Assembly: GCA_040830765.1 (NCBI GenBank)
Contig: JBFOMH010000011.1
Span: 1-64,000 of the forward strand
Length of the DNA stretch: 64,000 bases
Reading direction: 5' to 3'
DNA from: Puniceicoccaceae bacterium
GTDB lineage: Bacteria; Verrucomicrobiota; Verrucomicrobiia; Opitutales; Oceanipulchritudinaceae
The notes beneath the pieces are model-generated. The model saw only the letters and a program-made list of their open reading frames with translations. It made no database searches and was not told where the DNA came from. A program made the translations under genes and the position numbers. Below, piece by piece: positions 1 through 49,778 of the stretch. Position 1 is the first letter of the stretch, and every line of letters begins with the position of its first letter.

Positions 1-2071
1 ATTTCGGGGGGTCCGCGGCTCTCTGCTCGAAGTAGTCGGGGTAGTATATTTCCTGCCTGGAGCGGGCCCCGACCCAGTAGCTGACCTTGCGGGGAGTTTT
101 TTCGTTCTGGAAGGGGGGGGCAAGAGGGGCGGGCAGGGGAGCCATCCCGGCCCCACCGCCGATGTAAATCATTTCCCGCTGGGTGGGCTTGATATGGAAG
201 TCGCCGAAGGGACCAATGGCGGTCACGGTATCGCCCGCCTTGAGGTTGAAGACATAGCTTGATCCGACGCCCGGAGGACAATCCTGCCCCGGGGGCGGCG
301 TGGCGATGCGGACATTGAAGCGGAGAATGGTCTCCTTTTGCGAATTGCTGGCGAGGGAGTAGTTGTTGCGCCGATTCTCCTCCGTGTTGCTGGCGACCAG
401 ATCAAAGACATGCTGCCGCTCCCAGACCGTGGCGTAGGGCTCGGGAATATCGAACTCCCGGAAGCGGATCTGTTCGTAAGTCGGGATATCGAGCTGCATA
501 TAATCACCCGGTTGGAAATCGACGGCGTCTTCAGCGCTGGCCGGCTCGAGGACCAGTTCCTTGATGAAGGTGGAGACGCTGGTGTTGCTGACCACCTTGA
601 AGGTGTAGGTCTTCTCCTCGCGGGCACCGTCGCCACCAGCCTGGCTGATATTGAGCCAGATCCGACCGTTGCGCTCCTCGATGGGATATGTGACCAAACC
701 GCGGCAGATGGGTGCGCGGGCAGGGGAACCGTCAGTGAGGTTGAAGCGGCCATTGTGCTTTGGACACTCGACAATCCGTCCCTTGACCAGGCCATCGGCG
801 AGGTGGGTGTTGCCATGGGTGCAGAATCCGTCCGAGGCGTAGAGCTGTCCCTCGATATCCCGGTAGAGGGCATAGGTCTTGGACCCATGGTCGAAGCGGA
901 TGACATCCTCCGTGCCGAGGTCGGCCGCGGCACAGATTTCCATCCAGCCCTCCGTATCCGGACCTTTGTCCGAGCGGTAGGTGTCATCCTCCTGGGTCCG
1001 GCTGGGCTCGGGCAGCTTGCGTTTGACGTGCCATGCCGTCTCCTTCACCTGGCGCAGGATGGCGGGAATGATTTCCCGGTAGGCAACGATAAGATTCGGA
1101 TAGGGCTCCGGGCAATCGTCCTTGATGGCCTCGTGCAGCTCGCGTTGCTTGTGGTAGGGCACCAGCGGGAACATGTGGTGTTCCACGTGGTAGTTCATAT
1201 TCCAATACAAAAAGCGGTGAATCGGATTCATATAGACCGTGCGGCAGTTGAGCCGGTGGTCGAGGACGTTCTCCGCGAGGCCGGCGTGCTGGGTCAGTCC
1301 ATAAAGGACCATTAGCCAGCTGCCGAAGATGTTCGTCAGGCCGACATAGAACAGCGGCAGGACGCTGCCGGTGTAAATTGATAGCGCGATGACCGAGGCG
1401 TAGATGAATACATAGACCCGCGCGTTGCGGTAAATCTTCCCGAACTCCGTTTCTGGGATGAAGGTCTTTTCATCATCGGACATCTTGCCGAGGGAATGGC
1501 TGATGATGCCTTTGAAATACTTCGGATAGACGGTGAGGTTGAAGATGCCAAGGATGAGTGCCTTGATGTCCGGCGGGCGCGGCACGGCGATCTCCGGATC
1601 CCGCCCGACTATGATGGTGTCGCTGTGGTGACGCGTGTGGCTCCAGCGCCAGACGACCGATTCCCGCATGACCATGAAAGAGGCGATTTCGTAGAGGACA
1701 TTGTTCATCCAGTCGGTGCGGAAGGCCGTTCCGTGGCTGGACTCGTGCCAGCGGGAATCCGAGCTGCCGGCGTAGAGGGCGGCGTAGGCAAGGTAGGGGA
1801 GAATGGCCCACCAGGTACCCCAGAGCATGAAGGTGAGGTAGCCAAACCCAAAGATAAGCCCAAACCAGATGATGGTGTCGCGGATCGCCGGCCCGTTGTT
1901 GCGTTCCAGCAGTTTGCGCATGGTGGCGCGGGGGACCGGGCACTGGTACCAGTCGGCCTCCGCGAGGCCCTTTTCAATGGACTTGGTGGCGTTTTCCCCG
2001 GTCAGGCTGTAGTCGAGGTGCTTCGGCGGTTTGGTGAGGACGGCTGATGCGTGTTCAAGGTCGTCGAGCAT
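1..2071 (-). CDS. Fatty-acid-desaturase-type (MocD-like) di-iron oxygenase + Rieske (MocE-like) + NqrF-like FAD/NAD reductase fusion, copy 1; C-terminus runs off the window
   Basis: Not in the ORF track because it has no stop in the window. Translated by hand from ATG at 2071: MLDDLEHASAVLTKPPKHLDYSL...WHESSH; 53 of the first 60 aa are identical to 15709..18003. Rieske CTH...CPKH and GGGAGMAP motifs are visible. Confidence 0.9.
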   Translation of the reverse strand, partial: MLDDLEHASAVLTKPPKHLDYSLTGENATKSIEKGLAEADWYQCPVPRATMRKLLERNNGPAIRDTIIWFGLIFGFGYLTFMLWGTWWAILPYLAYAALYAGSSDSRWHESSHGTAFRTDWMNNVLYEIASFMVMRESVVWRWSHTRHHSDTIIVGRDPEIAVPRPPDIKALILGIFNLTVYPKYFKGIISHSLGKMSDDEKTFIPETEFGKIYRNARVYVFIYASVIALSIYTGSVLPLFYVGLTNIFGSWLMVLYGLTQHAGLAENVLDHRLNCRTVYMNPIHRFLYWNMNYHVEHHMFPLVPYHKQRELHEAIKDDCPEPYPNLIVAYREIIPAILRQVKETAWHVKRKLPEPSRTQEDDTYRSDKGPDTEGWMEICAAADLGTEDVIRFDHGSKTYALYRDIEGQLYASDGFCTHGNTHLADGLVKGRIVECPKHNGRFNLTDGSPARAPICRGLVTYPIEERNGRIWLNISQAGGDGAREEKTYTFKVVSNTSVSTFIKELVLEPASAEDAVDFQPGDYMQLDIPTYEQIRFREFDIPEPYATVWERQHVFDLVASNTEENRRNNYSLASNSQKETILRFNVRIATPPPGQDCPPGVGSSYVFNLKAGDTVTAIGPFGDFHIKPTQREMIYIGGGAGMAPLPAPLAPPFQNEKTPRKVSYWVGARSRQEIYYPDYFEQRAADPPK

Positions 2072-2101: not shown

Positions 2102-3187
2102 TTATTCGTGACAGAAGGCAAATTTCGTGATGCGGCGCTGTGGATTCCCCGGGCGGACAATGATGTCCCCGAAGCCGGCTTGTGTCGTGGCGGCCGGATA
2201 ACCCTCGGTCTCAAGACAAAGCCCGGCGCAACGGGTGTAGGCGCGTTCCGACTTGCCGGTGAGGGACCCGTCAAAGTCCTTGCCGGTGTAGAACTGGAGG
2301 CAGGTCTCGGTGGTGCTGACTTCCATGACCTGGCCGGTTGGCGGGTGAAACAGGCGCGCCACGGGCCGCAGCTCCTCCGCTTCGCCTAACCAGTAGAGGT
2401 CGCCGTGCTCCTGCCATATGCCGGGAATTATGTCACCAACCCGCTTGCGGGTACTGAGGTCGCAGGGCTTGCCGGCGACGGGCTCCTTCCCGCCGAGCAG
2501 GGTCATCTCTTCATCGGCTGCGGCGACCGAGTCACTGAGTATGACCAGTTCATGGTCCTCGATCGATCCGGAACCCTCACCGGCGAGATTAAAGTAGGCA
2601 TGGTGGGTCAGGCTGACGGGAGTCGGCTCGCTGGCCGTCACCTCTGTCTCATAGAGAAAGGCATTGTCTTGAGTGACGGTATAGGTCACGGCGACGAGGA
2701 CTTCTCCCGGATAGCCTTCCTCCCCGGCCGGACTGGTGTAGCTCAGCCGTACCGACGGCGCGCCGTCCGCCCGCTCGACCCCCTCGGCCGACCAGAGCCG
2801 CTTGTCGAAGCCAATGGCCCCGCCATGGAGGTGGTTGGTCCCGTCGTTTTGCAGTAAATGATAAGGCTTCCCCTCAACCTCAATGATGCCGTCCGGGACT
2901 CGGCCAGCAATCCGGCCCACCGTCGCCCCGGCAAAAGGCTTGTTGTTGAGGTAGGCAGCAAGGTCGTTGAATCCCAGCACGACGTCGCGGCGCTCGCCGC
3001 CGCCGTCCGGAACGATCAGTCGGGAGACAATGCCGCCATAGGTCAGGACTTCCAGCTCCATGCCAGCGGCATTGCGCAGTGTCCAGGCCGTCACGTCGCG
3101 CCCATCCGGCATATCGCCGTAGGGGCGGGACGTTAAGGTGGGAGTGGTGTCCGGTGAGGGGGTAGGGGTCGATTCGGTGCTGCTCAT
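2102..3187 (-). CDS. galM: Aldose 1-epimerase (mutarotase)
   Basis: GATVGRIAGR, NHLHGG, THHAYFNL and GLCLETE motifs. Confidence 0.92.
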   Translation of the reverse strand: MSSTESTPTPSPDTTPTLTSRPYGDMPDGRDVTAWTLRNAAGMELEVLTYGGIVSRLIVPDGGGERRDVVLGFNDLAAYLNNKPFAGATVGRIAGRVPDGIIEVEGKPYHLLQNDGTNHLHGGAIGFDKRLWSAEGVERADGAPSVRLSYTSPAGEEGYPGEVLVAVTYTVTQDNAFLYETEVTASEPTPVSLTHHAYFNLAGEGSGSIEDHELVILSDSVAAADEEMTLLGGKEPVAGKPCDLSTRKRVGDIIPGIWQEHGDLYWLGEAEELRPVARLFHPPTGQVMEVSTTETCLQFYTGKDFDGSLTGKSERAYTRCAGLCLETEGYPAATTQAGFGDIIVRPGNPQRRITKFAFCHE

Positions 3188-3199: not shown

Positions 3200-3263
3200 G
3201 TTATAACAGATATCAGCAGTCCTTTCTTTTCGCCTGTTGTGGAATACCTCTCCTTTTTTGCAA
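3200..3263 (-). promoter_or_regulatory. Putative AraC-activated promoter of galM-oxygenase operon
   Basis: TATAAC on the minus strand at 3200-3205; the 40-bp block 3224-3263 matches 4614-4653 at 27/40 positions. Confidence 0.5.
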
Positions 3264-3281: not shown

Positions 3282-4541
3282 CTATTTTCCCGCATTGAAG
3301 TCGCGCACTGTCTCGATCATGGCGACAACATTCTCGACCGGCGTAAGGGCCTGGACGTTGTGGATTGAATTGAAGACAAAGCCGCCTTGCTTGCCGAGGA
3401 CCTCGCAGCGCTCACGGACCTCCTTGCGGACTGCCTCGGGGGTGCCAAAGGGGAGGGTCTCCTGGGTGTTGACCCCGCCACCCCAGAAGGTGATGCGGTC
3501 CCCATACTTGGCCTTGATGGTGTTGGCATCCATGCCGGTGGCCTGGCACTGAACCGGATTGATGATATCGAATCCAGACTCAATGAGCGGATCGAGCAAT
3601 GGCTCGATGGCCCCGCAGCTGTGCTTGAAGGTCTTCCAAGTGGTGTTCTCGTGAATCCAGTCGTTTATCTTGAGGTAATAGCCCTTCCACACATCGAGGT
3701 AGGTGTCGACGGAGCAGAACTGGGAGGTCTGGGTGCCGAAATCGGTCCCGCAAATCACGACCACGTCAAGGAGCTCCCCGACAATGGAATGGAGCCGCTT
3801 CATGTTCTCGACCGCAATCTCGGTCTGGGCTTCAAAAATCTTTTTCACATGGTCAGGTTCCTCGGCCACCAGCATGTACCAGTCGGCGACCCCACGGACG
3901 CCCTTTGGATTCTTCAGGAAAGGGGCCGGCACGAGCGCGATGTCGCCCAGGCAGGTGCCGTTGAGGTGGGTCAGGATTGCCCGGTCGTTGCCCTTCATGG
4001 CTTCCGCCTCCTTGGTCCAGTAGGCGACATCCTCATCGGTCATGAGGCCGAATTCCTCAAGGTTGTCTTCCACGTGCAGGTCATCCTCATCGAAGTCCGG
4101 ATCGATGCGCTCGATGGTGTCGAAGAAGTAGCCTGTCTTCGGCAACTCTGCACTGGGCGGCGCTGTCCGGTCACCTTGAGGATAGATGACAATGGAACCA
4201 TTCGCTTTCTCGTTGGTATGAAAATGGGAAGAGACCAGAACCTCCTGTCCCCAGGGCGTCTGCCATGACTTCCAGTCCTCGTTGGGAAAGCCGAAAATGG
4301 TCTTGTAGGGAAAGATGCTGGTGGTGTCGATACCCATGGCCTCGCGGAGGTCATCCTCCACCATGCCCAGCATCTGGTAGGGCTCGGGGACTTTTACAGG
4401 CTTCTTCTCGAGACCGTAATAGTCCCGCAGTTGCTCCACCACACTGCAGTGGATGCCGGTGATGAAGGTGCTCCCGAAGTCAACCGGTATCGGGCCATCC
4501 TGATGATTGAGGGAATTGAGGACGCGTTCCTTGTGTGTCAT
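3282..4541 (-). CDS. UroD/MtaA-CmuA-fold protein (putative corrinoid methyltransferase), paralog 1
   Basis: MTHKERV N-terminus, GTDFGTQ, FKHSCG, NPVQ, FWGGGVNTQ..LP.GTPE, GGFVFNSIHNVQ. Confidence 0.8.
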   Translation of the reverse strand: MTHKERVLNSLNHQDGPIPVDFGSTFITGIHCSVVEQLRDYYGLEKKPVKVPEPYQMLGMVEDDLREAMGIDTTSIFPYKTIFGFPNEDWKSWQTPWGQEVLVSSHFHTNEKANGSIVIYPQGDRTAPPSAELPKTGYFFDTIERIDPDFDEDDLHVEDNLEEFGLMTDEDVAYWTKEAEAMKGNDRAILTHLNGTCLGDIALVPAPFLKNPKGVRGVADWYMLVAEEPDHVKKIFEAQTEIAVENMKRLHSIVGELLDVVVICGTDFGTQTSQFCSVDTYLDVWKGYYLKINDWIHENTTWKTFKHSCGAIEPLLDPLIESGFDIINPVQCQATGMDANTIKAKYGDRITFWGGGVNTQETLPFGTPEAVRKEVRERCEVLGKQGGFVFNSIHNVQALTPVENVVAMIETVRDFNAGK

Positions 4542-4588: not shown

Positions 4589-4653
4589 ATTATAGCGGAT
4601 GGAGAAGCTTCAATTCTTCTTGCTCTCTCGGAAAAACCTTTCATTTTTTGCGA
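4589..4653 (-). promoter_or_regulatory. Putative AraC-activated promoter of UroD paralog 1, abutting the araC start
   Basis: Perfect TATAAT on the minus strand at 4589-4594, with the shared 40-bp block at near-identical spacing. Confidence 0.55.
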
Positions 4654-4654
4654 T

Positions 4655-5545
4655 ATGCTTGAGGATCTCAAGTTAGGCCCGGCTTACGATGGATTCCTCT
4701 TCCTTGCCGAGGCGCGGCACAACCCGCCCATCCTGCGGAGCCACCGGCATGTCGAGTTGGAGCTGAACCTAGTCACCCAGGGATCGGTGACCTATATCAT
4801 TTCCGGGAACCGCTACACCTTTTCGCGCGGGAGCATGCTGTGGATATTTCCCGCTCAGGAGCATCAGCTGGTCGACCGTACCCCGGACGCCCGTTATTAT
4901 GTCGGAGTCTTTAAGCCGGAATTGATCGAGCGGGCCTGTCACGGGGACCTCTACCAGGGGCTGAAGCAGGAGTGCGTCGAAGGGGAGGCGATCCTCAGCA
5001 AGATCCTGCTTCTGGAGCGCTATAATCTTGTTATTCAAGTCATGGATTCGCTCATGGAAGGGTCCCTTGACCCCGAACTCCTAAACCGGGAAGCGGGTTT
5101 TGGCTACCAGTCGGACTTCCGCTACGAGCATGGGGACCCGGATGCCCTAAATGCGGGATTGCATTACCTGCTGGTCCATTGCTGGAAGGTCTTTCAGTCG
5201 GAGGGAACGGGGGCCGATTCCGTCCAGCTGCACCCGGCCGTCGCCAAAGCCCTGATCCTGATCGGAGAAGATGACAATGCCACCGGATTGACCGCCCTGG
5301 CCGAGAAATGCGGCATCTCGGAGACCTACCTGAGCCGCCTGTTCAAGGAGCAGGTCGGGGTAGCGCTGAATCACTACCGCAACTCCGTCCGCCTACGCGC
5401 GTTCATGGAGCACTACCGCTCTCCTCCGAGAAAGACCATCCTGGAGTGCGTCTATGCCGCCGGATTCGGCAGCTACGCCCAGTTCTACAAGGTCTTTATG
5501 AAGTCCTATGGCTACGGGCCAAGGGAATACTTGAAAGGCGATTGA
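4655..5545 (+). CDS. AraC-family regulator (cupin + HTH)
   Basis: HRHVELELNLV cupin; YLSRLFK...AGFGSYAQFYKVF HTH. Confidence 0.9.
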   Translation: MLEDLKLGPAYDGFLFLAEARHNPPILRSHRHVELELNLVTQGSVTYIISGNRYTFSRGSMLWIFPAQEHQLVDRTPDARYYVGVFKPELIERACHGDLYQGLKQECVEGEAILSKILLLERYNLVIQVMDSLMEGSLDPELLNREAGFGYQSDFRYEHGDPDALNAGLHYLLVHCWKVFQSEGTGADSVQLHPAVAKALILIGEDDNATGLTALAEKCGISETYLSRLFKEQVGVALNHYRNSVRLRAFMEHYRSPPRKTILECVYAAGFGSYAQFYKVFMKSYGYGPREYLKGD

Positions 5546-7243: not shown

Positions 7244-7571
7244 TACCTTTAGTGATGGTGTTCTTCATCATTTCGTCAATCCACTAATAATCAGGAGCTT
7301 ACAAAATTCTGTTTTGCGTCGATTTTCTACACAGCGAGCGCGTCTTTGTTCATGTTTAGACCCGATTATTTTGCTTCCATGGGACTTGAACAATTCCGGT
7401 AAACCACCAATCCTGAAGGGGTTAAGTCAGACAGAATCGATTTTTTTCACATCTTCATCGTTATTATCAATAGGATTAATATGGGGACCTGGGATAAGGT
7501 ATCGGCGAACCTGCGGAAGACCCGCTCTACTTCAAAATCCCTCAATCATTCAGATTGCAACCAAGAGAAAT

Positions 7572-8492
7572 ATGAATGCAAACTCCTATATTGAATCCGC
7601 TGCCCTGAAGGCCCGCAATTTCGTTTGTGCGCTAATCGGTTGCGTACTTGTTGCTCCATGGACACTAACCGCCCAGGAAGCGACCAGTGAAGACGACACG
7701 GAAATATATGATCTGTCTCCATTCGTGGTAGACGCCTCTGACGATACACGTTACGCAGCGACCAACACCTTGGCGGCAACCCGTGTAAGGACCGACCTCA
7801 ATGACGTCGCCTCCTCGGTTTCCGTTTATACCAAAGACTTCCTTGAAGATGTTAATGCGACGGATGATGCCTCCCTGCTGCTCTATGCTACCAATGCAGA
7901 AGTTGGTGGAATCTCCGGCAACTTTGCTGGCGCCGGCAATGGTGGCCTTCTGGATGAAACGGCTGGTTTCCGGGCCATCTCAACAACAACTCGAGTCCGC
8001 GGCCTTGATGCCGCTGACAACACCCGCGATTACTTCCGCACCTTGATCCCTTGGGACGGATACAACGTCGATCGTGTGGACATGCAGAGAGGTCCGAATT
8101 CCGTCCTCTATGGCCTCGGCAAGCCGGCAGGCATCATCAACACCACCCTCAAGCAGCCACTTTTTGACGATTACTTTGAGATGGCCCTTCAGGTATCCAA
8201 CTGGGGAAGCGTCCGGGTAACCGGCGACTTCAACAAGGAGATTATTGATAATGAGTTGGCTGTCCGCTTCAATGTCCTTTCGGACTCCACCGAGTTTCGG
8301 CAGGATCCCGCCTACGAGGACGATGAGCGCTTCTATATCGCCGCCAAGTATCTTCCGGAGTTTCTCATCCCGGCCGGGTTTGCCCTCTTGACGGCAGGGA
8401 TCACCTGCTTTTACAAGATCGACCGCCGGATGGAGGAGCAACTGGCCGAAACGATGAAGGAGATGAAAAGGTCCGGGGAATCACTTAGGTAA
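7572..8492 (+). pseudogene. Truncated TonB-dependent receptor (signal peptide + plug + start of barrel) fused in frame to a transporter-like C-terminal tail
   Basis: LSPFVVDAS..YAATNTLAATR, RVRG, RVDMQRGPNSVLYG..GIIN plug motifs; only about 300 aa; ends IPAGFALLTAGITCFYKIDRRMEEQL. Confidence 0.75.
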
Positions 8493-9811: not shown

Positions 9812-10882
9812 ATGACCTCAAAGGAGCGTGTCAAACTCGCCTTTTCGCACCAGGAACCAGATCGTGTTCCGATCGACTACCTCTGTAATCCGGGAATTGA
9901 TGCCCGCCTCAAGGCCCATTTCGGGCTGAAGGCGGAGGATGACGAAGGCCTCCGGGAAGCTCTGGGAGTGGATTTCCGCAACGTCGAGGCGCCCTTTATC
10001 GGGCCGGAGCGCTTTTCTCCAGTGGAAGGACGCCGCATCGATGAATGGGGCATCCGGACCCGCTGGATCGAGCACAGCAGTGGGGGTTACTGGGACTATT
10101 GCGACTTTCCCCTGGAGGAAGCTGAACTGGATGAAATCATGTCCTGGCCCATTCCCGAGCCGGATGATTTCGACTACGACGCCTTGGTCGAGCAGTGCCG
10201 CCGCTGGAAGGACTACTACCTAATGCTGGGGAATCCGGGAGTAGGGGACTTTATTAACAGTACGGGCATGCTGCGGACCATGGAGGTTGTCCTGATGGAT
10301 CTCTTTGAAGGAGCGGAGGAGACACTAGCCCTCCTTGACCGCCGGCTGGACCTGCAGTTACAGATGCTGGAACGTTGTCTCGACAAGGCCAGGGGAGGAA
10401 TCGACATGCTCTGGATCGGGGATGACCTCGGAACCCAGATTGCCCCGATCCTCAGCCTGGAACTTTTCCGGCAGCACCTGCGGCCGCGGCACCAGAAGTT
10501 GGTCGACCTTGCCAAGTCTTACGGTGCCGAGGTCATGGTACATTCCTGCGGGTCCAGCAGCTGGGCCTTTGATGACTTCATTGAGATGGGTATTGGCGTG
10601 ATCGACACCCTGCAACCGGAGGCGAAGAACATGGATCCGGCGTACTTGAAAAGTCGCTACGGTGAGCAGTTGTCTTTTCATGGGTGTATTTCGACGGCTG
10701 GTCCGGTGGTCGACGGGACCGTTGAAGAAGTCGTTGGCGATGTCCGTGATAAACTGGACATCCTCATGCCCGGCGGTGGCTACGCCCTTGCCCCGACGCA
10801 CCAGTTACAGGACAACTCCAGGACGGAAAACGTGATCGCCCTCTACGAGACCGCCCGGACTTATGGGCGCTACCGGAAGTGA
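9812..10882 (+). CDS. UroD/MtaA-CmuA-fold protein, paralog 2
   Basis: MTSKERV..EPDRVP, DEWG, GDDLGTQ, VHSCG, LQPE, GGYALAPTHQLQ. Confidence 0.82.
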   Translation: MTSKERVKLAFSHQEPDRVPIDYLCNPGIDARLKAHFGLKAEDDEGLREALGVDFRNVEAPFIGPERFSPVEGRRIDEWGIRTRWIEHSSGGYWDYCDFPLEEAELDEIMSWPIPEPDDFDYDALVEQCRRWKDYYLMLGNPGVGDFINSTGMLRTMEVVLMDLFEGAEETLALLDRRLDLQLQMLERCLDKARGGIDMLWIGDDLGTQIAPILSLELFRQHLRPRHQKLVDLAKSYGAEVMVHSCGSSSWAFDDFIEMGIGVIDTLQPEAKNMDPAYLKSRYGEQLSFHGCISTAGPVVDGTVEEVVGDVRDKLDILMPGGGYALAPTHQLQDNSRTENVIALYETARTYGRYRK

Positions 10883-10898: not shown

Positions 10899-11945
10899 TC
10901 AGACCTTCCAGGTCTGGACCGTCTCGATCATGGTGAGAACATTGTCCAGTGGCGTGCCCGCCTGCACGTTGTGGCAGGAGCAGGGAAGATACCCACCACC
11001 CGCTCCCAGCGTTCGCAGGCAGGTCTCCACTTCCTGACGTACCTCATCGGGTGTACCGTGAGGCAGGACATGCTGGTTCTCAACGCCGCCGTGGAAGATA
11101 AGATCGTCGCCAAATGCCTCATTTAACTCCTTCCGGTCCATTCCGGGGCAGATGTGCTGGATGGGATTGAGGATGTCCACTCCACATTCAATCAGCTCCG
11201 GGATAATCGGCCTGGCCGCACCGTCGGAGTGGTATAAGACCTTCATTCCGCGTGAATGAACGAGATCGCACCAGCGGGCCATGCGTGGCTTGAGGAAGGT
11301 CCGCCAGTGGTCGATGGACATCAGAAGACTTTCCTGTGTTCCCATGTCATCGGAGACCAGGACCATGTCGAGGAGCCCATCCAGTTTGTCGAACATGCGC
11401 TCCAGCATGGCTGTCTGGGCGGCTTCAATCTTGTCGAGGGCAGCATTCAGGAATTCCGGCTCCGCCAGCACATCCATGAGGGCGTTCTCGAGGCCGCGCA
11501 TGCGGCAATAGACCTCGAAGTGGGACACCCATGGACCAATGGTCGCAAACTGGAACTGGCGGGCCTTTTCGGCCTTTGCCCGGACGGCTGCGTAGTCAAA
11601 TTTGTCCGGGTCCGGCCAGTAGGGATGGTCCTCCAGTTCCTCCGGTTCCTCCATGTCCTCGAGTGGCCGTTCACTGACCTCATTGTAGACGGCGGCCCCG
11701 GATTGAATGGCTTCGGAGGCAACACCCCAGGGATCGCGCAGGGCCGGTTTCTCATCGCTGATATAGTTGGGCACCAGCCAGGCAATCTTGTCGATGCCGA
11801 GGGCCTGGTACATCTCGTATTCGTCTTCCTTGCCAGTGTGCTTCTTGAGGTCGGCCATGACCTCCGGGGTTAGCCAGATGTCGATGGGGACCCGGTCCAC
11901 GGGCAGGCGGTTAATGGTATTCAGGGTTCTGAGCTTGGGTGTCAT
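10899..11945 (-). CDS. UroD/MtaA-CmuA-fold protein, paralog 3
   Basis: MTPK..DRVP, DPWG, SDDMGTQ, YHSDG, NPIQ, FHGGVENQ, GGYLPCSCHNVQ. Confidence 0.82.
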   Translation of the reverse strand: MTPKLRTLNTINRLPVDRVPIDIWLTPEVMADLKKHTGKEDEYEMYQALGIDKIAWLVPNYISDEKPALRDPWGVASEAIQSGAAVYNEVSERPLEDMEEPEELEDHPYWPDPDKFDYAAVRAKAEKARQFQFATIGPWVSHFEVYCRMRGLENALMDVLAEPEFLNAALDKIEAAQTAMLERMFDKLDGLLDMVLVSDDMGTQESLLMSIDHWRTFLKPRMARWCDLVHSRGMKVLYHSDGAARPIIPELIECGVDILNPIQHICPGMDRKELNEAFGDDLIFHGGVENQHVLPHGTPDEVRQEVETCLRTLGAGGGYLPCSCHNVQAGTPLDNVLTMIETVQTWKV

Positions 11946-12053
11946 GAGCGGAACGATTAACGGTTGATTACACGACATAAAGGCATACAAAGCTTTACTG
12001 TATCAGTTGTTTTAATCTTCTGAACAACGAATCTCCAGCGAATACTGCCCAAT

Positions 12054-12782
12054 ATGTCTTTCGACCTGTCAAACTGTGCCATTCTTTCCTGCGATGTCTT
12101 CCAGGAGGAGTTGTTCAACTATCTGGAATCGCCCGGGGAGCTGGGCGCGATGGCCCTTTTGGAGATGGGGCTGCATGACCAGCCGGATGTCCTGCGGCAG
12201 GAGGTTCAGAAAACCATCGACCGGCTGGAGGCGATGCCGAACATTGAGACAATCCTGCTGCTTTACGGCATTTGCGGAAACGGCCTCATCGGGGTGGAAT
12301 CGAAGCGCTGCCAACTGATCATTCCCCGTGCCCATGACTGCGTCTCCATCCTGCTGGGCAGCCCGGAAAAGCACCAGGCCATCCTGAAGGACAATCCTGG
12401 GACTTATTTCTACAGCCCCGGCTGGGTCCGCGGACGCCGGGTACCGGGGCCGGACCGGGATGCCCACTTGATGGAATTCTATTCTGAAAAATATCCCGGT
12501 GATGAGGAGATGGTGGAGGACCTGATCGAGGCGGATCATGAGACCTATGAGCACCACAATTGCGCCGCTTACGTGGATTTGACAGACAATGTGGGCGCCG
12601 AGTCCTACTGCAAGGATTGTGCGGCTTCCCTTGGGTGGAAGTACCGTCGACTGCAGGGTGATGCCACACTCTTGAAGGATTTTCTTTCGGGTAACTGGGA
12701 TGATACGCGCTTCCTGGTCGCTGGTCCTGGCGAGCGGATTGAGGGTGTAGTCGACGGTCCGTCAACTGGCATTCAGGGTTAA
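12054..12782 (+). CDS. DUF1638-family protein
   Basis: C...E, GLHD.P..L, YGICGNGL.G, PRAHDC..ILLG, GTYFYSPGW; typical neighbour of corrinoid activators. Confidence 0.8.
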   Translation: MSFDLSNCAILSCDVFQEELFNYLESPGELGAMALLEMGLHDQPDVLRQEVQKTIDRLEAMPNIETILLLYGICGNGLIGVESKRCQLIIPRAHDCVSILLGSPEKHQAILKDNPGTYFYSPGWVRGRRVPGPDRDAHLMEFYSEKYPGDEEMVEDLIEADHETYEHHNCAAYVDLTDNVGAESYCKDCAASLGWKYRRLQGDATLLKDFLSGNWDDTRFLVAGPGERIEGVVDGPSTGIQG

Positions 12783-12786: not shown

Positions 12787-14367
12787 ATGGGAGCGACCAA
12801 GTTCGAAGTCATCATTCCCGGTGGTCAGCGGCGTTCGGTCCGTCTTCCGGAGGACGCGCAACACCTGACTTTTGCCGAAGCCCTGGAGGCGCAAGGCCTT
12901 CCATTGAACATGCGGTGCGGTGGACGCGGCCTGTGCCGGGGATGCACAGTGGAATTCCGTGATGGTGATTCCATTGAATCCTTCCGTGCCTGCCAGAGAA
13001 AGACGGCTAAGTTGCCGTCCTCGGCCACCAATCTGTTCATTCCGGAAAACTCGTGGCGGGATCATTCCCTGCATGGGGTCAGTGTTTTTGAGATTCATAC
13101 CTCGGCCGACCTGCAATCCAGCCACCGTTCCGGATTTGGCCTCGCCCTCGATATCGGGACAACGACCATCGCCGGCGCCCTGTGGGATTTTTCCAACAAC
13201 CATTGCCTGGCCCACCATTCGCGGCCCAATCCGCAGGCTCGCTATGGGGACAATGTGGTTTCACGGATCCATTATTCCATGGAACGGGAAAGTGGTAGCG
13301 CGGATTTGCAGCGGTCCCTGGTCAAGGATGGACTGCAACCAATGCTCAGGGCCCTTTGTGCACAAGGGGGGGTAAATCCAGGGAGCATTGTATCCGCCAC
13401 TGCCTCCGGGAATCCGACCATGCTCCACACCCTGGCTGGCGAGTCCCTGGACGGTCTGGCTAAATATCCCTTTAAGCCGAACTTTCTCGGCCAGCGGACC
13501 TTCCAGGCCATTGACGTCGGCTTCAAGGAGGACTTCGAACTTGTCCTCTTGCCGGGCCTCGGACCCTTCGTCGGGGCGGATGTTGCCGTCGGGGCACTGG
13601 CCTCCGGCATGCTGGAGGAGGAAGGACCGATTCTCCTCATTGATTTCGGAACCAATGGGGAAATTCTCTTAAAAACCGCTGATGGCTACCTTGCCACCGC
13701 CACTGCGGCCGGACCGGCCTTTGAAGGTGGGCGACTAGCCTGCGGGGCAGCCGCAAGGGCGGGAGTCATCTCCTCGCTGCGGAGGAGGGAAGGGCAATGG
13801 CACTGGAAACTGTCCCGCAGCGGTGAGGAAGCACCCGTTGGGATTTCCGGCGCAGCCTATGTCGATTTTCTTGCGGCCGGTGCCAACGACGGCCTGCTGG
13901 ATCACTTTGGCCGCTTTAACCGCCAGTCCACGGAAGTGCATCAGAGGAAGGACGGCGAAGACGCCGATTGGGCCATTGCGATCAGCGAAAAAACCTACAT
14001 CACCGAAGCCGACGTGGCTGAGCTCCTGCAAGCCAAGGCGGCGATTGGCGGGGGTGTGCTGACCCTAATGGAAAAAGCGGGAATCGAAGCCAGCGACCTG
14101 CGCAAGGTCCTCGTGGCTGGAGGATTTGGCTATCACCTCGATCCCGCCCACGCCATGCGAGTTGGCCTGCTGCCCGAGGTCCCCCTCGAGCGCATCGACA
14201 TCGTCGGCAACGCCTCCCTTGGAGGCGCCTGCCTGTTGCTCAATGACGGGGTCAGCAAACAGCTGCAGCCACTGCTTGGTCAGTGTGAAGTCGTTGAGCT
14301 GAACCAGGAGGCCAGCTTTGAGGACCACTTCACCGACTGCCTCCTGCTGGAGCAGATGGACCTGTAG
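12787..14367 (+). CDS. ASKHA-type ATP-dependent reductive activator of corrinoid proteins (RACE/RACo, DUF4445) with N-terminal [2Fe-2S]
   Basis: CGGRGLCRGC...ACQ; ALDIGTTT; NPQ..YGD; FVGAD; DFGTNGE; AAGPAFEG; AGGFG; GNASL. Confidence 0.88.
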   Translation: MGATKFEVIIPGGQRRSVRLPEDAQHLTFAEALEAQGLPLNMRCGGRGLCRGCTVEFRDGDSIESFRACQRKTAKLPSSATNLFIPENSWRDHSLHGVSVFEIHTSADLQSSHRSGFGLALDIGTTTIAGALWDFSNNHCLAHHSRPNPQARYGDNVVSRIHYSMERESGSADLQRSLVKDGLQPMLRALCAQGGVNPGSIVSATASGNPTMLHTLAGESLDGLAKYPFKPNFLGQRTFQAIDVGFKEDFELVLLPGLGPFVGADVAVGALASGMLEEEGPILLIDFGTNGEILLKTADGYLATATAAGPAFEGGRLACGAAARAGVISSLRRREGQWHWKLSRSGEEAPVGISGAAYVDFLAAGANDGLLDHFGRFNRQSTEVHQRKDGEDADWAIAISEKTYITEADVAELLQAKAAIGGGVLTLMEKAGIEASDLRKVLVAGGFGYHLDPAHAMRVGLLPEVPLERIDIVGNASLGGACLLLNDGVSKQLQPLLGQCEVVELNQEASFEDHFTDCLLLEQMDL

Positions 14368-14429
14368 TTCTTAACGGTTTAAGTGAATTTGTTTGGCATC
14401 CTTCTTTGGCTGCTTTCAACTTATTTCAA

Positions 14430-15677
14430 ATGAAAATGCTACCACGATTCACCTTTGGAATGGGAGACCGCTTTGGCCGACAGGGCAAGGCCCAGTTGCA
14501 ATCCGTATTGGATGCCCGAAAATCGGGCATGGACGTGGCTCCGGTTTGGAACAAGAGCAAGCGGGAACATACACTGATCGGCACGGAACCGCAAAGTTTG
14601 CGGGATGAGGCGGATGCGGCGGTGCAGGCGCTGGGCTACAATGGTCCGTATTTCGTCGATGCTGACCACATCACAATCCAGACCGTGGATGACTTCCTTT
14701 CCTGCAGTGACTTCTTCACGCTGGATGTAGCCGACAGCCTCGGGCATCCCCCGGCAAGCGAGGAAAATAGTGCCCGTTACAGGGAAGCCCTGAAGGGATT
14801 GGGTGAGGTTTCCATTGAAGGTCTGGATGAACCCATTGTCTTCGATGAAGCAGCAGCGGAACAGATTGTCAGCAATTACGGCCTGGCCATCGAGGCAGCA
14901 AAGGAGCTGTTTGAGAAAATCGCGCTCAGCCGGACCGATGGGAAATTCGCCATCGAGGTTTCCATGGACGAGACAGAGACCCCGCAGGGTCCGAAGGAAT
15001 TGCTGGGGATTCTGCGGTTGCTTTCCCTCGAGCAGGTTCCCGCCCAGACGGTGGCCCCGAAGTTCACCGGTCGCTTCAACAAGGGAGTGGATTACGTCGG
15101 GGATGTGGACCAGTTCCGGAGTGAATTTGAGGCGGACCTGCTGGTCGTGGGTCATGCCATTGAGCATTTCGGGATGCCGGAAAGCCTTAAATTAAGTGTC
15201 CACTCCGGGAGTGACAAATTCAGCCTCTATCCTGTCATCAAGGAACTAGTGGCGAAGCACAACGCCGGTTTGCACTTGAAGACCGCCGGGACAACCTGGC
15301 TGGAGGAAGTCATTGGCCTGGCCGAATCCGGGGGCGAGGGGCTGGCCTTTATCAAGGACTTGTATGTGGAAGCGCTGCAGCACTTCGATGAGCTGACCGG
15401 TCCGTATGCGACGGTCCTGGATATCGATCCGAGCCAGTTGCCGGGCGCTGAAGAAGCCGGCCAATGGACCAGTGAAGACGTTATCGCCATGGTCGCCCAT
15501 GATCCTGGACACCCGCGTTTCAATTCCGGCCTGCGGCAGTTTTTCCATGTCGCCTTCAAGCTGGCAGCCAAGGCGGGGGACCGTTACTACAACCTGCTCG
15601 ATGCCAATGCCGTCGTCATCAACCGGCGCGTCTACGACAATCTCCACGACAAACACATCGTGAAGGTATTTGCCTGA
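14430..15677 (+). CDS. uxaE: Tagaturonate/fructuronate epimerase
   Basis: FGMGDRFG, DADH, EVSMDE, APKFTG.FNKGVDY, KLSVHSGSDKF, HLKTAGTTWLEE. Confidence 0.85.
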   Translation: MKMLPRFTFGMGDRFGRQGKAQLQSVLDARKSGMDVAPVWNKSKREHTLIGTEPQSLRDEADAAVQALGYNGPYFVDADHITIQTVDDFLSCSDFFTLDVADSLGHPPASEENSARYREALKGLGEVSIEGLDEPIVFDEAAAEQIVSNYGLAIEAAKELFEKIALSRTDGKFAIEVSMDETETPQGPKELLGILRLLSLEQVPAQTVAPKFTGRFNKGVDYVGDVDQFRSEFEADLLVVGHAIEHFGMPESLKLSVHSGSDKFSLYPVIKELVAKHNAGLHLKTAGTTWLEEVIGLAESGGEGLAFIKDLYVEALQHFDELTGPYATVLDIDPSQLPGAEEAGQWTSEDVIAMVAHDPGHPRFNSGLRQFFHVAFKLAAKAGDRYYNLLDANAVVINRRVYDNLHDKHIVKVFA

Positions 15678-15708: not shown

Positions 15709-18003
15709 CTAGAATTCATCGAAGGAAATCTGCTGAGGCTCGACCCCGAGTTCAGTCAGCATCCGGGTGCAGGCACGGATCATCATCGGCGGACCACAGA
15801 GGTAAAACTCGACCGCCTTGGGATTTGGATGATCCTGCAGGTAATTGTCGAGGACGACCTCATGGATAAATCCGGTGTGCCCCGTCCAGTTGTCCTCCGG
15901 GAGGGGCTCAGAAAGGGCCAGATTGAAGGAGAAATTGGCATGCTGTTCAGCCATCTGCTCAAAGTAATCCTGATAATAGAGTTCCTGCCGGGAACGGGCC
16001 CCGTACCAGTAGCTGACCTTGCGCGGGGTCTGCTCATTTTCAAAGAGATGGGCGAGGTGGGCCCGTAACGGGGCCATTCCGGCGCCACCGCCAATGTACA
16101 CCATTTCCCGCTGGGTCGGGCGGATGTGAAAGTCACCAAAGGGGCCGATGGCAGTGACCGTATCCCCGGCCTTCAGGTTGAAAGCATAACTGGAACCAAC
16201 ACCGGGCGGACAGTCCTGACCCGGAGGCGGCGTAGCAATGCGGACGTTGAAGCGAAGGGCAGTCTCCTTCTGCGGATTACTGGCGATGGAGTAGTTGTTG
16301 CGTCGGCTCTGTTCGGCGTTGCTGACAACGAGGTCGAAGACATGCTGGCGTTCCCACACGGAGGCATAGGGCTCCGGAACATCAAATTCGCGGAAGCGGA
16401 TTTGCTCATACTGGGGAATGTCGAGCTGCATGTAATCGCCGGGCTGGAATTCGATTTTCTCTTCACTGTCAGCCGGTTCCAGTACCAGTTCCTTGATGAA
16501 CGTGGAGACGTTCTTATTGCTGACGACCCTGAAGGTAAAAGTCTTTTCCTCCCGTGCACCATCGCCGCCAGCGCGGGAAACATTGAGCCAGATGCGGCCG
16601 TTGCGTTCCTCAATGGGGTAGGTGACAAGGCCCCTGCAAATGGGAGCCCGTGCGGGAGAGCCATCCGGAAGGTTGAAGCGGCCGTTGTGCTTCGGGCACT
16701 CGATAATCCTGCCCTTGACGAGGCCGTTGGCGAGATGGGTATTTCCGTGGGTACAGAATCCGTCCGTTGCATACAGCCTGCCCTCGTTGTCCCGGTAAAG
16801 CGCGTAGGTCCGTGTCCCGTGGTCGAAACGGATGACATCCTCGCTGCCAAGGTCGGCAGCGGCACAAATCTCCATCCACCCGTCCGTGTCCGGTCCTGCT
16901 TCTGAGCGGTACGTGTCATCGGCGTGCTGTCGTGTCGATTCCGGCAGCTTGCGCTTGACGTGCCATGCCGGCTCCTTGACCTGACGCAGGATGGCAGGGA
17001 TGATTTCCTTGTAGGCCGCAATAATTCCCGGATAAGGCTCCGGGCAGTCATCCTTTACCGCCTCGTGCAGCTCATGCTGCCGGTGATACGGAACCAGCGG
17101 AAACATGTGATGCTCCACATGGTAGTTCATGTTCCAGTAAAGGAAGCGGTTAACAGGATTCATGTAGACCGTCCGGCAGTTGAGCCGATGGTCGAGGACG
17201 TTTTCAGCCAGGCCGGCGTGCTGGGTCAGACCGTACATGACCATCACCCAGCTTCCGAAAATATTGGCCAGGCCAACGTACATCAGTGGCAGGATGCTTC
17301 CCGTGTAAATGGCCAGGCAAACGACGACGGCATAGATGCAAAGGTAGATGCGGGCGTTGCGGTAGATCTTTCCGAACTGTTCCTCAGGAATAAAGGTCTT
17401 TTCATCTTCCGTCATCCTGCCCATGGCATGCTGGGTTACGGTCTGGAAGTACTTTATATAGACTGGAAGATTGAAGATGCTCAGGAGCAGCGTCTTGATG
17501 TCCGGTGGCCGGGGAACTGCGATTTCCGGATCCCGCCCAACAATGATGGTATCACTGTGGTGCCGGGTATGGCTCCAGCGCCAGACAACGGATTCCCGCA
17601 TGACCATGAAGGAGGCGATTTCATAAAGCGCGTTGTTCATCCAGTCGGTCCGGAAAGCGGTTCCGTGGCTCGATTCATGCCAGCGGGAATCGGAGCTGCC
17701 CCCATAGAGGATGGCATAGATCATGTAGGGCAAAATGGCCCACCACGTGCCCCAGAGGATGTAGGTGGCGTAGGCGGAACCGAAGATGAGGCCAAACCAG
17801 ATGAGGGTGTCACGGATTGCCGGTCCGTTCGTCCGCTCCAGGAGTTTGCGCATCTTGGCCCGCGGAACGGGACACTGGTACCAGTCCGCCTCCGCCAGGC
17901 CTTTCTCAATGGCCTTGGTGGCGTTTTCACCAGTCAGGCTGTAATCGAGGTGCTTCGGAGGATTCAGGTGGATCGCACTGGCGTGTTCGAGGTCATCAAG
18001 CAT
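15709..18003 (-). CDS. MocD-like desaturase-type oxygenase + Rieske + NqrF-like reductase fusion, copy 2 (764 aa)
   Basis: His boxes HESSH, HTRHH, HVEHH with TM helices; Rieske CTH...CPKH; R.YS, GGGAGMAP, YLCGPP, FDEF end. Confidence 0.9.
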   Translation of the reverse strand: MLDDLEHASAIHLNPPKHLDYSLTGENATKAIEKGLAEADWYQCPVPRAKMRKLLERTNGPAIRDTLIWFGLIFGSAYATYILWGTWWAILPYMIYAILYGGSSDSRWHESSHGTAFRTDWMNNALYEIASFMVMRESVVWRWSHTRHHSDTIIVGRDPEIAVPRPPDIKTLLLSIFNLPVYIKYFQTVTQHAMGRMTEDEKTFIPEEQFGKIYRNARIYLCIYAVVVCLAIYTGSILPLMYVGLANIFGSWVMVMYGLTQHAGLAENVLDHRLNCRTVYMNPVNRFLYWNMNYHVEHHMFPLVPYHRQHELHEAVKDDCPEPYPGIIAAYKEIIPAILRQVKEPAWHVKRKLPESTRQHADDTYRSEAGPDTDGWMEICAAADLGSEDVIRFDHGTRTYALYRDNEGRLYATDGFCTHGNTHLANGLVKGRIIECPKHNGRFNLPDGSPARAPICRGLVTYPIEERNGRIWLNVSRAGGDGAREEKTFTFRVVSNKNVSTFIKELVLEPADSEEKIEFQPGDYMQLDIPQYEQIRFREFDVPEPYASVWERQHVFDLVVSNAEQSRRNNYSIASNPQKETALRFNVRIATPPPGQDCPPGVGSSYAFNLKAGDTVTAIGPFGDFHIRPTQREMVYIGGGAGMAPLRAHLAHLFENEQTPRKVSYWYGARSRQELYYQDYFEQMAEQHANFSFNLALSEPLPEDNWTGHTGFIHEVVLDNYLQDHPNPKAVEFYLCGPPMMIRACTRMLTELGVEPQQISFDEF

Positions 18004-18128
18004 AGCTCTATTTTAGGATCCTTTTTATGGCATTAGGCAATTCCTTTCATGAATTACCTTCATGAAGATACAGTTGCATATTTGAATTATTACTTATTTC
18101 ATCAGCCCCTGTGAACGCATTTAGCAAG

Positions 18129-19217
18129 ATGACCTCCCGCGAACGGGTAAACCGCATGTTTGCCCGCGAGGACCATGACCGCATGCCTCGTCACGAAGGG
18201 TGCTGGCTGGAGACGCTCGACCGGTGGATGCAGGAAGGCCTACCGGCTGACAACCACGATGATGCCTTTGCTGTTGTCCAGCAGCAGCTGGGTGGCGACT
18301 TGCAGATGGTCAACTGGTACTGGCCGCATTCCTTTCCGGGCAGGATGGAGGTCCTTGAGGAGGACGAGGATACCCGGGTCACCAAGGGTCCAAGCGGGAC
18401 AATCGAGCGATTCTGGAAGAACAAGTCGGGCACGCCGGAACACCTCGGCTGGGAGTGCGATGAGCGCGAAATCTGGGAATCGACCTACAAGCCGGCGATG
18501 CTCGAACAACCCGTGCAGATCGATGTGGAGGCCGTCAGGAAGCAGGTCGAGAAGGCGGAACGGCATCATCGCTGGACCTACCTGGCCGGCGTGGGACCGT
18601 TTGAAGTCATCCGCAAGATCCTCGGGGACGAGCTCTTCATGATGAACCTGATCGACGAGCCGGACTGGATCGAGGACATGGCCCGGATATCGATGGATAA
18701 CCTCGTCCGCAATTACCAGGTGGTGCTGGATGCCGGCATCCAGGCTGACGGGCTGTGGATATTTGATGACATGGCCTTCCGGACCGCAACCTTCTGCTCC
18801 CCGGCGATGTATCGCGAGCTGCTGTGGCCGCAGCACCAGCGGTTGGCGGAGTTTGCCCATGCCAACGGGATGAAGTTCATCTACCATACGGATGGGGATG
18901 TCCGGCAGGTGCTTCCCGACTACATCGAGGCCGGCTTCGACTGCCTCCAGCCACTGGAGGCCAAGGCCAGTATGGATGTGAGGGAACTGGTGCCCCAGTA
19001 TGGCAGGGAATTGGCATTTTTCGGTAATATCGACGTCACGAAGTTAATCACCAACGACCTCGATATCATTGAGGAGGAAATTGCCAGCAAGCTGACCGTG
19101 GCCAGCGGGTCGAAGGGCTACATTTACCACTCCGACCATTCCGTCCCGCCACAGGTATCATGGGAAACCTATCAGGCGGTCATCCGGTTCCTCGACAAGT
19201 ATGGATCCTACGGTTGA
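18129..19217 (+). CDS. UroD/MtaA-CmuA-fold protein, paralog 4
   Basis: MTSRERV..DRMP, FDDMAF, YHTDG, LQPLE, FFGNID, YIYHSDHSVP; start could instead be GTG at 18111. Confidence 0.8.
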   Translation: MTSRERVNRMFAREDHDRMPRHEGCWLETLDRWMQEGLPADNHDDAFAVVQQQLGGDLQMVNWYWPHSFPGRMEVLEEDEDTRVTKGPSGTIERFWKNKSGTPEHLGWECDEREIWESTYKPAMLEQPVQIDVEAVRKQVEKAERHHRWTYLAGVGPFEVIRKILGDELFMMNLIDEPDWIEDMARISMDNLVRNYQVVLDAGIQADGLWIFDDMAFRTATFCSPAMYRELLWPQHQRLAEFAHANGMKFIYHTDGDVRQVLPDYIEAGFDCLQPLEAKASMDVRELVPQYGRELAFFGNIDVTKLITNDLDIIEEEIASKLTVASGSKGYIYHSDHSVPPQVSWETYQAVIRFLDKYGSYG

Positions 19218-27418: not shown

Positions 27419-27606
27419 ACAGGATGCATTTATACAGTTTTTCAATGGCGAACCACAAGTTAAAGTTTGCTGCAGGTAGGCCTTTTCAGGCCCTTTTTTA
27501 AATTAGAAGAAAAGAATTGTCACCTATTGTACTCGGATTCAATTTGGAATGCAAAACGACAAATAATGCATCATTTGGACTATTCCATGCCATTGGCCCT
27601 GCCGTA

Positions 27607-35575: not shown

Positions 35576-35662
35576 AACTGGAGCCATGCGGCAAACGGTC
35601 TCGAAACAAGTACCTTGTCTTCGTCGCTGGAATTGTCAGTATCTGACGCAACGCCGGGATTC

Positions 35663-49776: not shown

Positions 49777-49778
49777 CA

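Follow-up and report, generated by a model that had tools for sequence, protein, structure and literature searches.

A single-chain fusion of membrane di-iron oxygenase, Rieske ferredoxin and NqrF-derived reductase as a candidate O-demethylase of methylated sugars

The closest described system to the gene considered here is that of mocD, mocE and mocF of Rhizobium and Sinorhizobium, which form a rhizopine-induced unit (PMC10107442; PMC numbers here and below refer to excerpts of the papers), and which in tree-pathogenic Pseudomonas syringae adjoin a xylose isomerase gene, with unclear function there (PMC5132102). A different membrane di-iron oxygenase, the three-domain AlkB of Leptospira, Limnobacter and Polaromonas, combines ferredoxin, ferredoxin reductase and alkane hydroxylase; it was predicted (PMC4021335) and is reported active (PMC8918992). 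Oxidative O-demethylation of a monosaccharide with formaldehyde release is described for the cytochrome P450 CYP236A of marine Bacteroidota (PMC6292453; PMC9400963). Corrinoid O-demethylase systems, built from MT1, a corrinoid protein, MT2 and an activating enzyme, remove methyl groups by another chemistry; none with a sugar substrate was found as far as the literature was searched. The window analysed here, the first 64,000 nucleotides (forward strand) of contig JBFOMH010000011.1 in assembly GCA_040830765.1 of a Puniceicoccaceae bacterium (Verrucomicrobiota), contains two copies of a gene that joins a MocD-type di-iron oxygenase, a MocE-type Rieske ferredoxin and an NqrF-derived reductase for flavin and nicotinamide adenine dinucleotides (FAD, NAD) in one chain. 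This protein, hereafter the fusion, is a candidate for the removal of methyl groups from sugars; no paper on it was found in the literature searched, whose scope excluded subscription journals and supplements.

The complete gene, copy 1, is a minus-strand open reading frame from 18003 to 15709 with 764 codons for amino acids and zero internal stops. A sequence-only reading of this DNA had described a 764-residue chain with three His boxes, a Rieske ferredoxin at about 16580-16880 and an NqrF-like module lacking the NqrF membrane anchor and plant-type 2Fe-2S domain, and had called for a Pfam scan and a count of the architecture in databases; these structural claims are borne out. The His boxes are HESSH (residues 109-113), HTRHH (145-149) and HVEHH (295-299), accompanied by QH at 261-262; the Rieske motifs CTH (417-419) and CPKH (436-439) fall within a domain encoded at 16576-16878; and all four Pfam domains match above cut-off (FA_desaturase 86-327, Rieske 376-463, FAD_binding_6 553-626, NAD_binding_1 637-745). 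The NqrF profile TIGR01941 gives 356 bits (cut-off 295) over residues 487-764 only, corresponding to profile positions 128-403; the profile search found no match to positions 1-127 and no Fer2 match in the copy 1 protein. Since TIGR01941 is matched at positions 128-403 only, the anchor and the plant-type 2Fe-2S part of NqrF are absent. The NqrF cut-off is nevertheless passed on residues 487-764 alone, which explains the database names of the fusion: as anticipated, the source records among the 120 matches listed speak of NqrF or of a MocE Rieske protein.

The residues expected to hold metals and cofactors are conserved throughout the family. The metal ligands of the His boxes and the Rieske cluster are kept in 196-197 of 197 fused sequences, among them H109/H113, H145/H148/H149, H262 and H295/H298/H299. 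In the reductase, 191-197 of 197 sequences retain those of Y571, S572, GxxSS, GGxGMAP, CGPP and the terminal Phe that were tabulated. The flavin motif is altered by a one-residue insertion in most members, with two basal members retaining the canonical RxYS spacing; position 567 or 568 retains Arg or Lys in the fusions.

Judged from sequence, the fusion in copy 1 is neither a chance product nor a misassembly, because relatives at 71-84% identity share its architecture and the metal ligands are kept. All of the 120 matches listed carry the desaturase and Rieske domains and 119 also carry the NAD domain, the lone match without it being the contig-cut copy 2. A scan of species genomes confirmed at least 594 of at least 599 stretches, and an even sample of 301 Verrucomicrobiota genomes contained the fusion in 25 (23 near full length, 2 partial), several with two. 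The best 80 fusion loci, which are not an even sample and on which all phylum and neighbour counts below rest, comprise 46 from Verrucomicrobiota, 26 from Acidobacteriota, 4 from Bacteroidota and one each from Planctomycetota, Kiritimatiellota, Chloroflexota and an unclassified source, as assigned from record titles; relatives of the fusion thus span six named phyla. Family members are common among bacteria from peat, soil and water; the fused form was not found among 72,556 plasmids (no record covers 80% of the query) or in the phages searched. The fusion family is real, widespread and uncharacterised. A separate gene of NqrF length is retained in 8 of the 25 fusion genomes, and the three of these examined are full-length; a further NqrF-like protein (L106, G063:C11) has 613 amino acids, about 200 residues above the usual length.

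The kinship with the Moc system is close for two of the three domains. The catalytic domain is 50% identical over 349 amino acids to a desaturase-like gene of a rhizopine-type cluster in Rhizobium leguminosarum, and the Rieske domain is 52% identical to the next gene of this cluster; these references were taken as mocD and mocE by gene order, and the record for mocD reads fatty acid desaturase family protein. The best Rieske profile for the fusion is TIGR02377 (116 bits, cut-off 136). The reductase domain has no similarity to the reductase at the MocF position (E 0.075) and is, on this comparison, a replacement of MocF and not a fused MocF. The proposal that the fusion unites functions kept separate in MocD, MocE and MocF therefore stands for the first two domains and fails for the third. 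As in the MocD-MocE-MocF system for rhizopine (3-O-methyl-scyllo-inosamine), the domains follow the same order; unlike that system, the fusion is one chain instead of three, with a reductase of FNR type derived from NqrF, its neighbours are mutarotase, rhamnose and corrinoid genes and not inositol genes, and its hosts are Verrucomicrobiota, Acidobacteriota and Bacteroidota.

In a tree of 56 PF00487 proteins (L145 and P0200 left out), 12 fusions and one two-domain form (P0123) make up a clade with 100/99 support, whose sister group (99/96) consists of four MocD-like proteins. Far outside fall three named lipid desaturases and the remaining PF00487 members; the long-branch warnings for this tree concern the outgroup. 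Identity to the three lipid desaturases is 21-25%, the lipid desaturase profiles DesB and DesA give 40 and 10 bits (cut-off 500), and no AlkB profile occurs among the NCBIfam matches of the fusion up to E 1. A grouping with lipid desaturases, named by the sequence-only reading as an outcome that would overturn it, was thus not found. Two-domain desaturase-Rieske proteins (7 among 15 proteins read) are scattered across the same tree. When 40 reductase domains were placed in a tree, those of the 20 fusions occupied one side of a branch with 100/98 support and a stem of 0.75, placed among NqrF sequences, to which the FAD/NAD module is 46-54% identical; unlike NqrF, the fusion lacks the anchor and the plant-type cluster, carries the flavin-motif insertion and forms this clade of its own. 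The simplest history would be a MocD-MocE fusion first, followed by a single capture of the NqrF FAD domain; we infer this order of events, because the trees are midpoint-rooted. The genome contains three PF00487 matches only: the two fusion copies and a MocD-like single gene. The latter, a single-domain distant relative of MocD (31% identity), heads a run of amidohydrolase, Zn-dehydrogenase, hydroxyacid dehydrogenase and SDR-like genes (G000:C26:77484-82262; gene names taken from sequence starts), and may borrow electrons from the fusions, since no Rieske gene was seen beside it.

Structure prediction, likewise called for by the sequence-only reading, gave confident domains in an uncertain arrangement. 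The AlphaFold model of the whole 764-residue chain has a mean predicted local distance difference test score (pLDDT) of 89.6 and a predicted template modelling score (pTM) of 0.63; its folding alignment left out L084 and L073 (frame breaks) and P0121 (frameshift-like tail). Because fold searches with the full model filled with reductase matches, the catalytic domain was folded separately (pLDDT 94.8, pTM 0.90). This model matches the desaturase-fold chain 8xks_K (Z 21.2, root-mean-square deviation (rmsd) 3.6, 298 residues aligned), FtAlkB (Z 12.1, rmsd 4.5, 263 aligned, 18% identity in the structural alignment) and SCD1 (Z 5.8, rmsd 6.0, 213 aligned), the next row being at Z 3.7; a search for solved structures with the sequence of the catalytic domain gave no significant match. 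The predicted catalytic domain accordingly has the helical membrane fold of the AlkB/SCD type. The Rieske part of the model fits dioxygenase ferredoxins at 1.2-1.4 Å, and the reductase part fits the NqrF FAD domain at 1.2 Å over 278 residues. A complex prediction for the Rieske and reductase domains with FAD and 2Fe-2S included scored 0.02 against a mark of 0.32, which is no evidence either way. With three-domain AlkB the fusion shares this fold and the condition of a mis-annotated single-chain membrane di-iron oxygenase with both electron partners (PMC8918992; PMC4021335), so that self-sufficient membrane di-iron oxygenases are already known and the fusion is not unprecedented in that respect; in contrast to AlkB as described in these excerpts, it belongs to a different superfamily branch, places its partners C-terminally and not N-terminally, uses a Rieske carrier, and has a predicted polar substrate instead of alkanes.

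A polar substrate is suggested by the entrance to the predicted pocket. Directly ahead of His box 1 lies a stretch of nine residues that is polar in all 12 fusions and all 4 MocD-like proteins compared (mean hydropathy -1.0 to -1.6), against -0.3 to +1.9 at the same positions in the three named lipid desaturases; the stretch is mostly apolar in other PF00487 members, with exceptions such as L144 and L148. Each of D105, R107, E128, R136 and E137 is retained by 49-51 of 51 fusions. The gene neighbours of the 80 loci, called by our own heuristic with 105 representatives of 466 clusters scanned and with about 10 loci too short upstream to show a neighbour, point to sugars: aldose 1-epimerase (mutarotase) occurs in 25 of the 80 loci and in three phyla, and lies adjacent in 22 of the 78 loci in which the open reading frame caller found the fusion, followed by one AraC ortholog group (17), UroD-fold methyltransferases (8) and RhaT (7), and by RhaM, GH78-like genes, FdhA and a corrinoid-MtaB-RACo set (3 loci each). 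Neither mocCABR linkage nor inositol catabolism genes were seen in the window or among the scanned neighbours. The earlier expectation of methyl-sugars or methyl-inositols as substrates is thus upheld for the methyl-sugar class by gene context; aldoses are favoured over cyclitols of the Moc system, because the substrate of a mutarotase must have an anomeric carbon. In the window itself, a PL25 ulvan lyase (E 2e-197), an ulvan-type GH105, two GH78, GH106 and sulfatases make up a rhamnose-glycan locus. A free O-methyl aldose derived from algal or plant glycans is a likely substrate. 3-O-methyl-rhamnose occurs in mosses, liverworts and algae, and the excerpts of the same papers contain no report of it for ulvan (PMC6918356; PMC4446615). 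The identity of the sugar is the least certain point, with an O-methyl-rhamnose such as acofriose as first candidate.

Removal of a methyl group is what the one-carbon genes and the shared regulation described below point to. Formaldehyde dehydrogenase FdhA (713 bits, cut-off 637) is adjacent to the fusion in two of its three loci, and in L019 the FdhA start lies 17 bp past the fusion stop. Beside unfused rhizobial trios, a PanB-like gene comes next in three of five loci opened, and purU and folD come next in one; the PanB-like gene (under cut-off; after mocDEF-like genes in L087, L089 and L152) is a possible consumer of formaldehyde or methylene-folate. Parts of corrinoid O-demethylase systems stand beside the fusion or under its regulator; all of these parts score under the curated cut-offs of the named families. 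In the 11 UroD-fold neighbours aligned at what we take to be the MtaA motif position, the motif is His-x-Cys or His-x-Asp, with His where thiol methyltransferases have the second Cys. O-methyltransferases replace one or both Cys of the His-Cys-Cys site (PMC10418091); by this excerpt, neighbours without His-Cys-Cys would transfer O-methyl rather than S-methyl groups. The genome also contains a corrinoid protein with MtaB, an Rnf-like run, a pyruvate:ferredoxin oxidoreductase-like gene (named from its sequence start) and Fhs, a combination that fits a facultative organism. The corrinoid protein and MtaB, of the methanol methyltransferase family, form a set in this sugar degrader (G000:C21:150985-153019); a corrinoid protein and MtaB lie within 8 kb of the fusion in L009, L063 and L067, and MtaB occurs in 12 of 61 relatives. 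The set might take up methanol, or release methanol as a methyl sink.

A further link between the two proposed kinds of methyl removal is regulatory. In a reverse search, the AraC-family regulator encoded in the window was found in 12 of the 301 genomes, every one of which belongs to the 25 fusion genomes; in the 11 other genome loci it faces the fusion (6), the mutarotase and then the fusion (2), the UroD-fold gene (2) or nothing recognised (1). Of 11 metagenome loci with the regulator, six have it facing the fusion, seven an ortholog of the UroD-fold gene at 3282-4541, and three a run of corrinoid protein, this UroD-fold ortholog and MtaA-like methyltransferase, of which the longest continues with CobW, DUF1638 and RACo. 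No fusion was found inside these three corrinoid-type loci. One AraC-led corrinoid operon includes an MtaA-like methyltransferase with a weakly matched C-terminal thioredoxin-like domain of HUIPC type (L162:2583-3953). A 38-bp site consisting of two boxes, CAAAATATGA and GCGAGAAGA, 17 nt apart, occurs in 18 of 18 intergenic regions examined, among them both of the corrinoid-type loci tested (leave-one-out scores 27-51 bits; L155, L160, L163, L173 and the window's own site were left out of operator training). The two best sites in this 4-Mb genome lie in the window (Table 1), and the next-best scores 20.5. At a threshold of 18, chosen in this analysis, 22 of the 80 fusion loci have a site, four of them without the AraC gene in view, in a set that may overlap with the training genomes. 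The site was not found upstream of copy 1 or in two intergenic regions of the UroD/DUF1638 block. The 38-bp site is likely an AraC operator common to fusion and corrinoid operons across genomes, and we infer that the regulator is dedicated to these two modules. The best explanation for one AraC preceding an oxygenase in some loci and a B12 methyltransferase set in others is that both remove a methyl group from the same inducer.

The fusion is therefore best read as an O2-dependent O-demethylase of a free O-methyl aldose that releases formaldehyde, to which we assign a probability of about 0.6; O-demethylation of some kind, whatever the substrate, is probable and somewhat more secure. The three domains and their metal ligands, which are shown by sequence and model, would operate as an electron transfer chain. 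From family knowledge, NADH would reduce FAD, which would pass electrons one at a time to the Rieske cluster; moving on its linkers, the Rieske domain would reach the His-bound di-iron site, where O2 would be activated. The O-CH3 group would then be hydroxylated, and the resulting hemiacetal would fall apart to formaldehyde and the plain sugar, chemistry as described for CYP236A (PMC6292453). The predicted reaction is shared with that enzyme, which unlike the fusion is a soluble heme protein of unrelated fold with separate ferredoxin and reductase, acting on 6-O-methyl-D-galactose only according to the same excerpt. From gene context, the neighbouring mutarotase may supply the right anomer or pass the product on; formaldehyde would go to FdhA in some hosts and probably into a folate route in this organism; and the corrinoid methyltransferase set placed under the AraC would achieve this demethylation independently of oxygen. 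A wider proposal, which we put forward tentatively and at somewhat less than even odds, is a widespread regulon for recalcitrant O-methyl sugars in Verrucomicrobiota, Acidobacteriota and Bacteroidota, in which one AraC regulator and its operator would control two interchangeable arms. Under oxic conditions, the first single-chain membrane di-iron carbohydrate O-demethylase would act, made by joining an NqrF FAD domain directly to a Rieske carrier; under anoxic conditions, its place would be taken by the first sugar O-demethylase that depends on a corrinoid.

Several observations weigh against O-demethylation of a sugar by the fusion. No measured activity of any family member was found in the literature searched, and the demethylase role of MocD is itself a genetic model. 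The flavin motif carries its insertion, and the mutual arrangement of the modelled domains is uncertain. Copy 1 has neither the AraC site (score -7) nor the mutarotase, both of which belong to copy 2; 55 of the 80 loci are without mutarotase and 77 without FdhA; and kinship among loci inflates all neighbour and co-occurrence counts. Hps, FrmA and FdhA were not found in this genome, which has Fhs only. Of 37 family genomes, 12 have the fusion, 11 have MtaB and only 6 have both, an overlap that is not significant (p 0.12), and the corrinoid-type loci stop at a locus or contig edge, so that a fusion may follow further on.

Among other explanations, a self-sufficient oxygenase that carries out a different reaction on a small polar substrate (for example C-hydroxylation, N-demethylation or oxidative removal of another ether group) is unlikely, yet has the most to be said for it: desaturase-fold enzymes include hydroxylases of polar molecules, a weak match to the GntB profile was obtained, and the aldo/keto reductase, creatininase-like and TIM-barrel neighbours (4-6 of the 80 loci each) are not methyl-specific; the upstream region of copy 1 also differs. 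It leaves aside that the regulator and its site are common with corrinoid methyltransferase operons, and that one-carbon genes adjoin fused and unfused forms. Alternatively, the fusion could be a true MocD equivalent that demethylates O-methyl cyclitols of rhizopine or pinitol type for an inositol pathway, as its sister position to MocD, the same polar stretch before His box 1, and Gfo/Idh/MocA or sugar-phosphate-isomerase-type genes (3 of 80 loci each) could suggest; aldose mutarotase, however, is the commonest neighbour (25 of 80) although cyclitols lack an anomeric carbon, and no inositol operon was recognised among the 105 neighbour representatives scanned, which makes a cyclitol substrate decidedly improbable. 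Compatible with sugar demethylation, and improbable to a slightly lesser degree, is a chain that is not self-sufficient, with an impaired flavin module or the need for an extra carrier or another reductase. NqrF normally hands electrons to its plant-type cluster, and this usual acceptor is missing from the fusion; the change from RxYS to RRNNYS in most members, the existence of two-domain forms without reductase and the whole-chain pTM of 0.63 would fit as well. The other flavin and NAD motifs are nonetheless kept in 191-197 of 197 sequences, with Arg or Lys at 567 or 568, the basal members are canonical, and the model fits the NqrF FAD domain closely.

The two names under which the protein would be filed by annotation fare worse. 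A desaturase or hydroxylase of lipids that carries its electron supply in the same chain would account for the Pfam FA_desaturase match, for the fold common to AlkB and SCD1, and for a genome in which the two copies and the MocD-like single gene are the only PF00487 matches; tree, identity and profile scores set the fusion apart from lipid desaturases, and its polar pocket entrance and its sugar-catabolic, patchy and regulator-linked context make this very improbable. That it is the NqrF subunit of the sodium-pumping NADH:quinone reductase (Na+-NQR), as named in databases, is scarcely credible: the TIGR01941 cut-off is passed, but the anchor and the 2Fe-2S domain are absent, and 8 of 25 fusion genomes keep a separate NqrF-length gene. 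A search for NqrB, the one subunit looked for, gave no match above cut-off in this 96.9% complete genome, with a single match at 152 bits (cut-off 350) in the Rnf-like run. The absence of the anchor and 2Fe-2S domain, together with the lack of an NqrB over cut-off, argues that the fusion is not a Na+-NQR subunit.

Sugars that carry methyl groups are resistant to degradation and build up in the sea (PMC6292453), and as far as the literature was searched, no account was found of how bacteria demethylate positions other than that served by CYP236A, for example in 3-O-methyl-rhamnose. This question and the old MocD model are directly testable, because the fusion family is common and one gene suffices for an assay. 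The excerpts of a pinitol study (PMC9788770) contain no moc genes, and two annotated demethylase genes were not needed there; this neither supports nor tests the fusion family. What is new here is the shared regulator with its site, the trees, and the second copy in the window. As a biocatalyst for the selective demethylation of sugars, the fusion would need one component only; in metabolic surveys that rely on genomes, it causes NqrF to be overcounted.

Table 1. Positions and predicted roles of the fusion genes, their domains and associated features in the window
Feature	Position	Strand	Remark
Fusion gene copy 2	1..2071	-	84% identical to copy 1; cut by contig end
Aldose 1-epimerase (mutarotase)	2102..3187	-	directly upstream of copy 2; commonest neighbour of the fusion family
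Predicted AraC site upstream of mutarotase and copy 2	3224..3261	-	28.7 bits, second in genome
UroD-fold (MtaA/CmuA-like) methyltransferase	3282..4541	-	orthologs occur in fusion loci as well as corrinoid operons
Predicted AraC site upstream of UroD-fold gene	4614..4651	-	40.4 bits, best in genome
AraC-family regulator	4655..5545	+	putatively dedicated to fusion and corrinoid modules
UroD-fold methyltransferase-like protein	9812..10882	+	
UroD-fold methyltransferase-like protein	10899..11990	-	
DUF1638 protein	12054..12782	+	
RACo/ASKHA corrinoid reactivase-like protein	12787..14367	+	with 2Fe-2S domain
UxaE-family uronate epimerase	14406..15677	+	convergent on copy 1
Fusion gene copy 1	15709..18003	-	764 aa; MocD-type di-iron oxygenase, MocE-type Rieske ferredoxin, NqrF-derived FAD/NAD reductase
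FNR-type FAD/NAD module of copy 1	15712..16545	-	residues 487-764; NqrF-derived
Flavin motif RRNNYS of copy 1	16288-16305	-	one-residue insertion relative to NqrF RAYS
Rieske [2Fe-2S] ferredoxin domain of copy 1	16576..16878	-	residues 376-476; ligands C417, H419, C436, H439
Membrane desaturase-fold domain of copy 1	16954..18003	-	residues 1-350; polar conserved stretch precedes His box 1
His boxes of copy 1	17665-17679, 17557-17571, 17107-17121; QH 17218-17223	-	
UroD-fold methyltransferase-like protein	18111..19217	+	divergent from copy 1; heads run of GNAT, sodium-solute symporter and sulfatase genes

The end of copy 2 probably lies on contig C34, the gene having been split by the assembly: a matching C-terminus was found at the end of this contig (G000:C34:39318-39706), with a 166-bp overlap at 89% identity. 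The last 170 bp of C11 look error-rich. After the end of copy 2, C34 carries a 105-residue, apparently truncated piece of an aldo/keto reductase, of which a full relative lies on C5. Copy 1 has other neighbours, with a divergent UroD-fold gene on one side and the DUF1638-RACo-UxaE group on the other; as it lacks the AraC site and the mutarotase, its substrate may differ from that of copy 2. Its promoter region at 18004-18110 is AT-rich and divergent and contains the palindrome TTCATGAA twice; another regulator is likely for copy 1, because this region has no match to the AraC site. No informative solved relative was found for the UroD-fold protein at 18111-19217 or for the DUF5060 protein.

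Elsewhere in the window, the ulvan-type glycan locus extends over 25439-39447 (GH105-DUF4861, two GH78, GH106, the PL25 lyase and a glyoxalase-fold gene). A region at 46985-50648 encodes a LigM/DesA-like folate-dependent O-demethylase (583 and 536 bits, under the cut-offs), together with an MTHFR-like gene and an AraC gene; the LigM/DesA-like gene represents a third demethylation chemistry in the same window. The open reading frame at 7206-8492 starts as a TonB-dependent receptor with a plug domain and ends early in an unrelated-looking tail, and is probably a broken or rearranged gene. A 1277-residue protein (50742-54575) joins a CbiX/ferrochelatase-like domain to FG-GAP repeats, and a GH16 protein (61864-63783) carries an N-terminal ubiquitin-family domain (PF00240, E 2.5e-10), which is an unusual combination for a bacterium.

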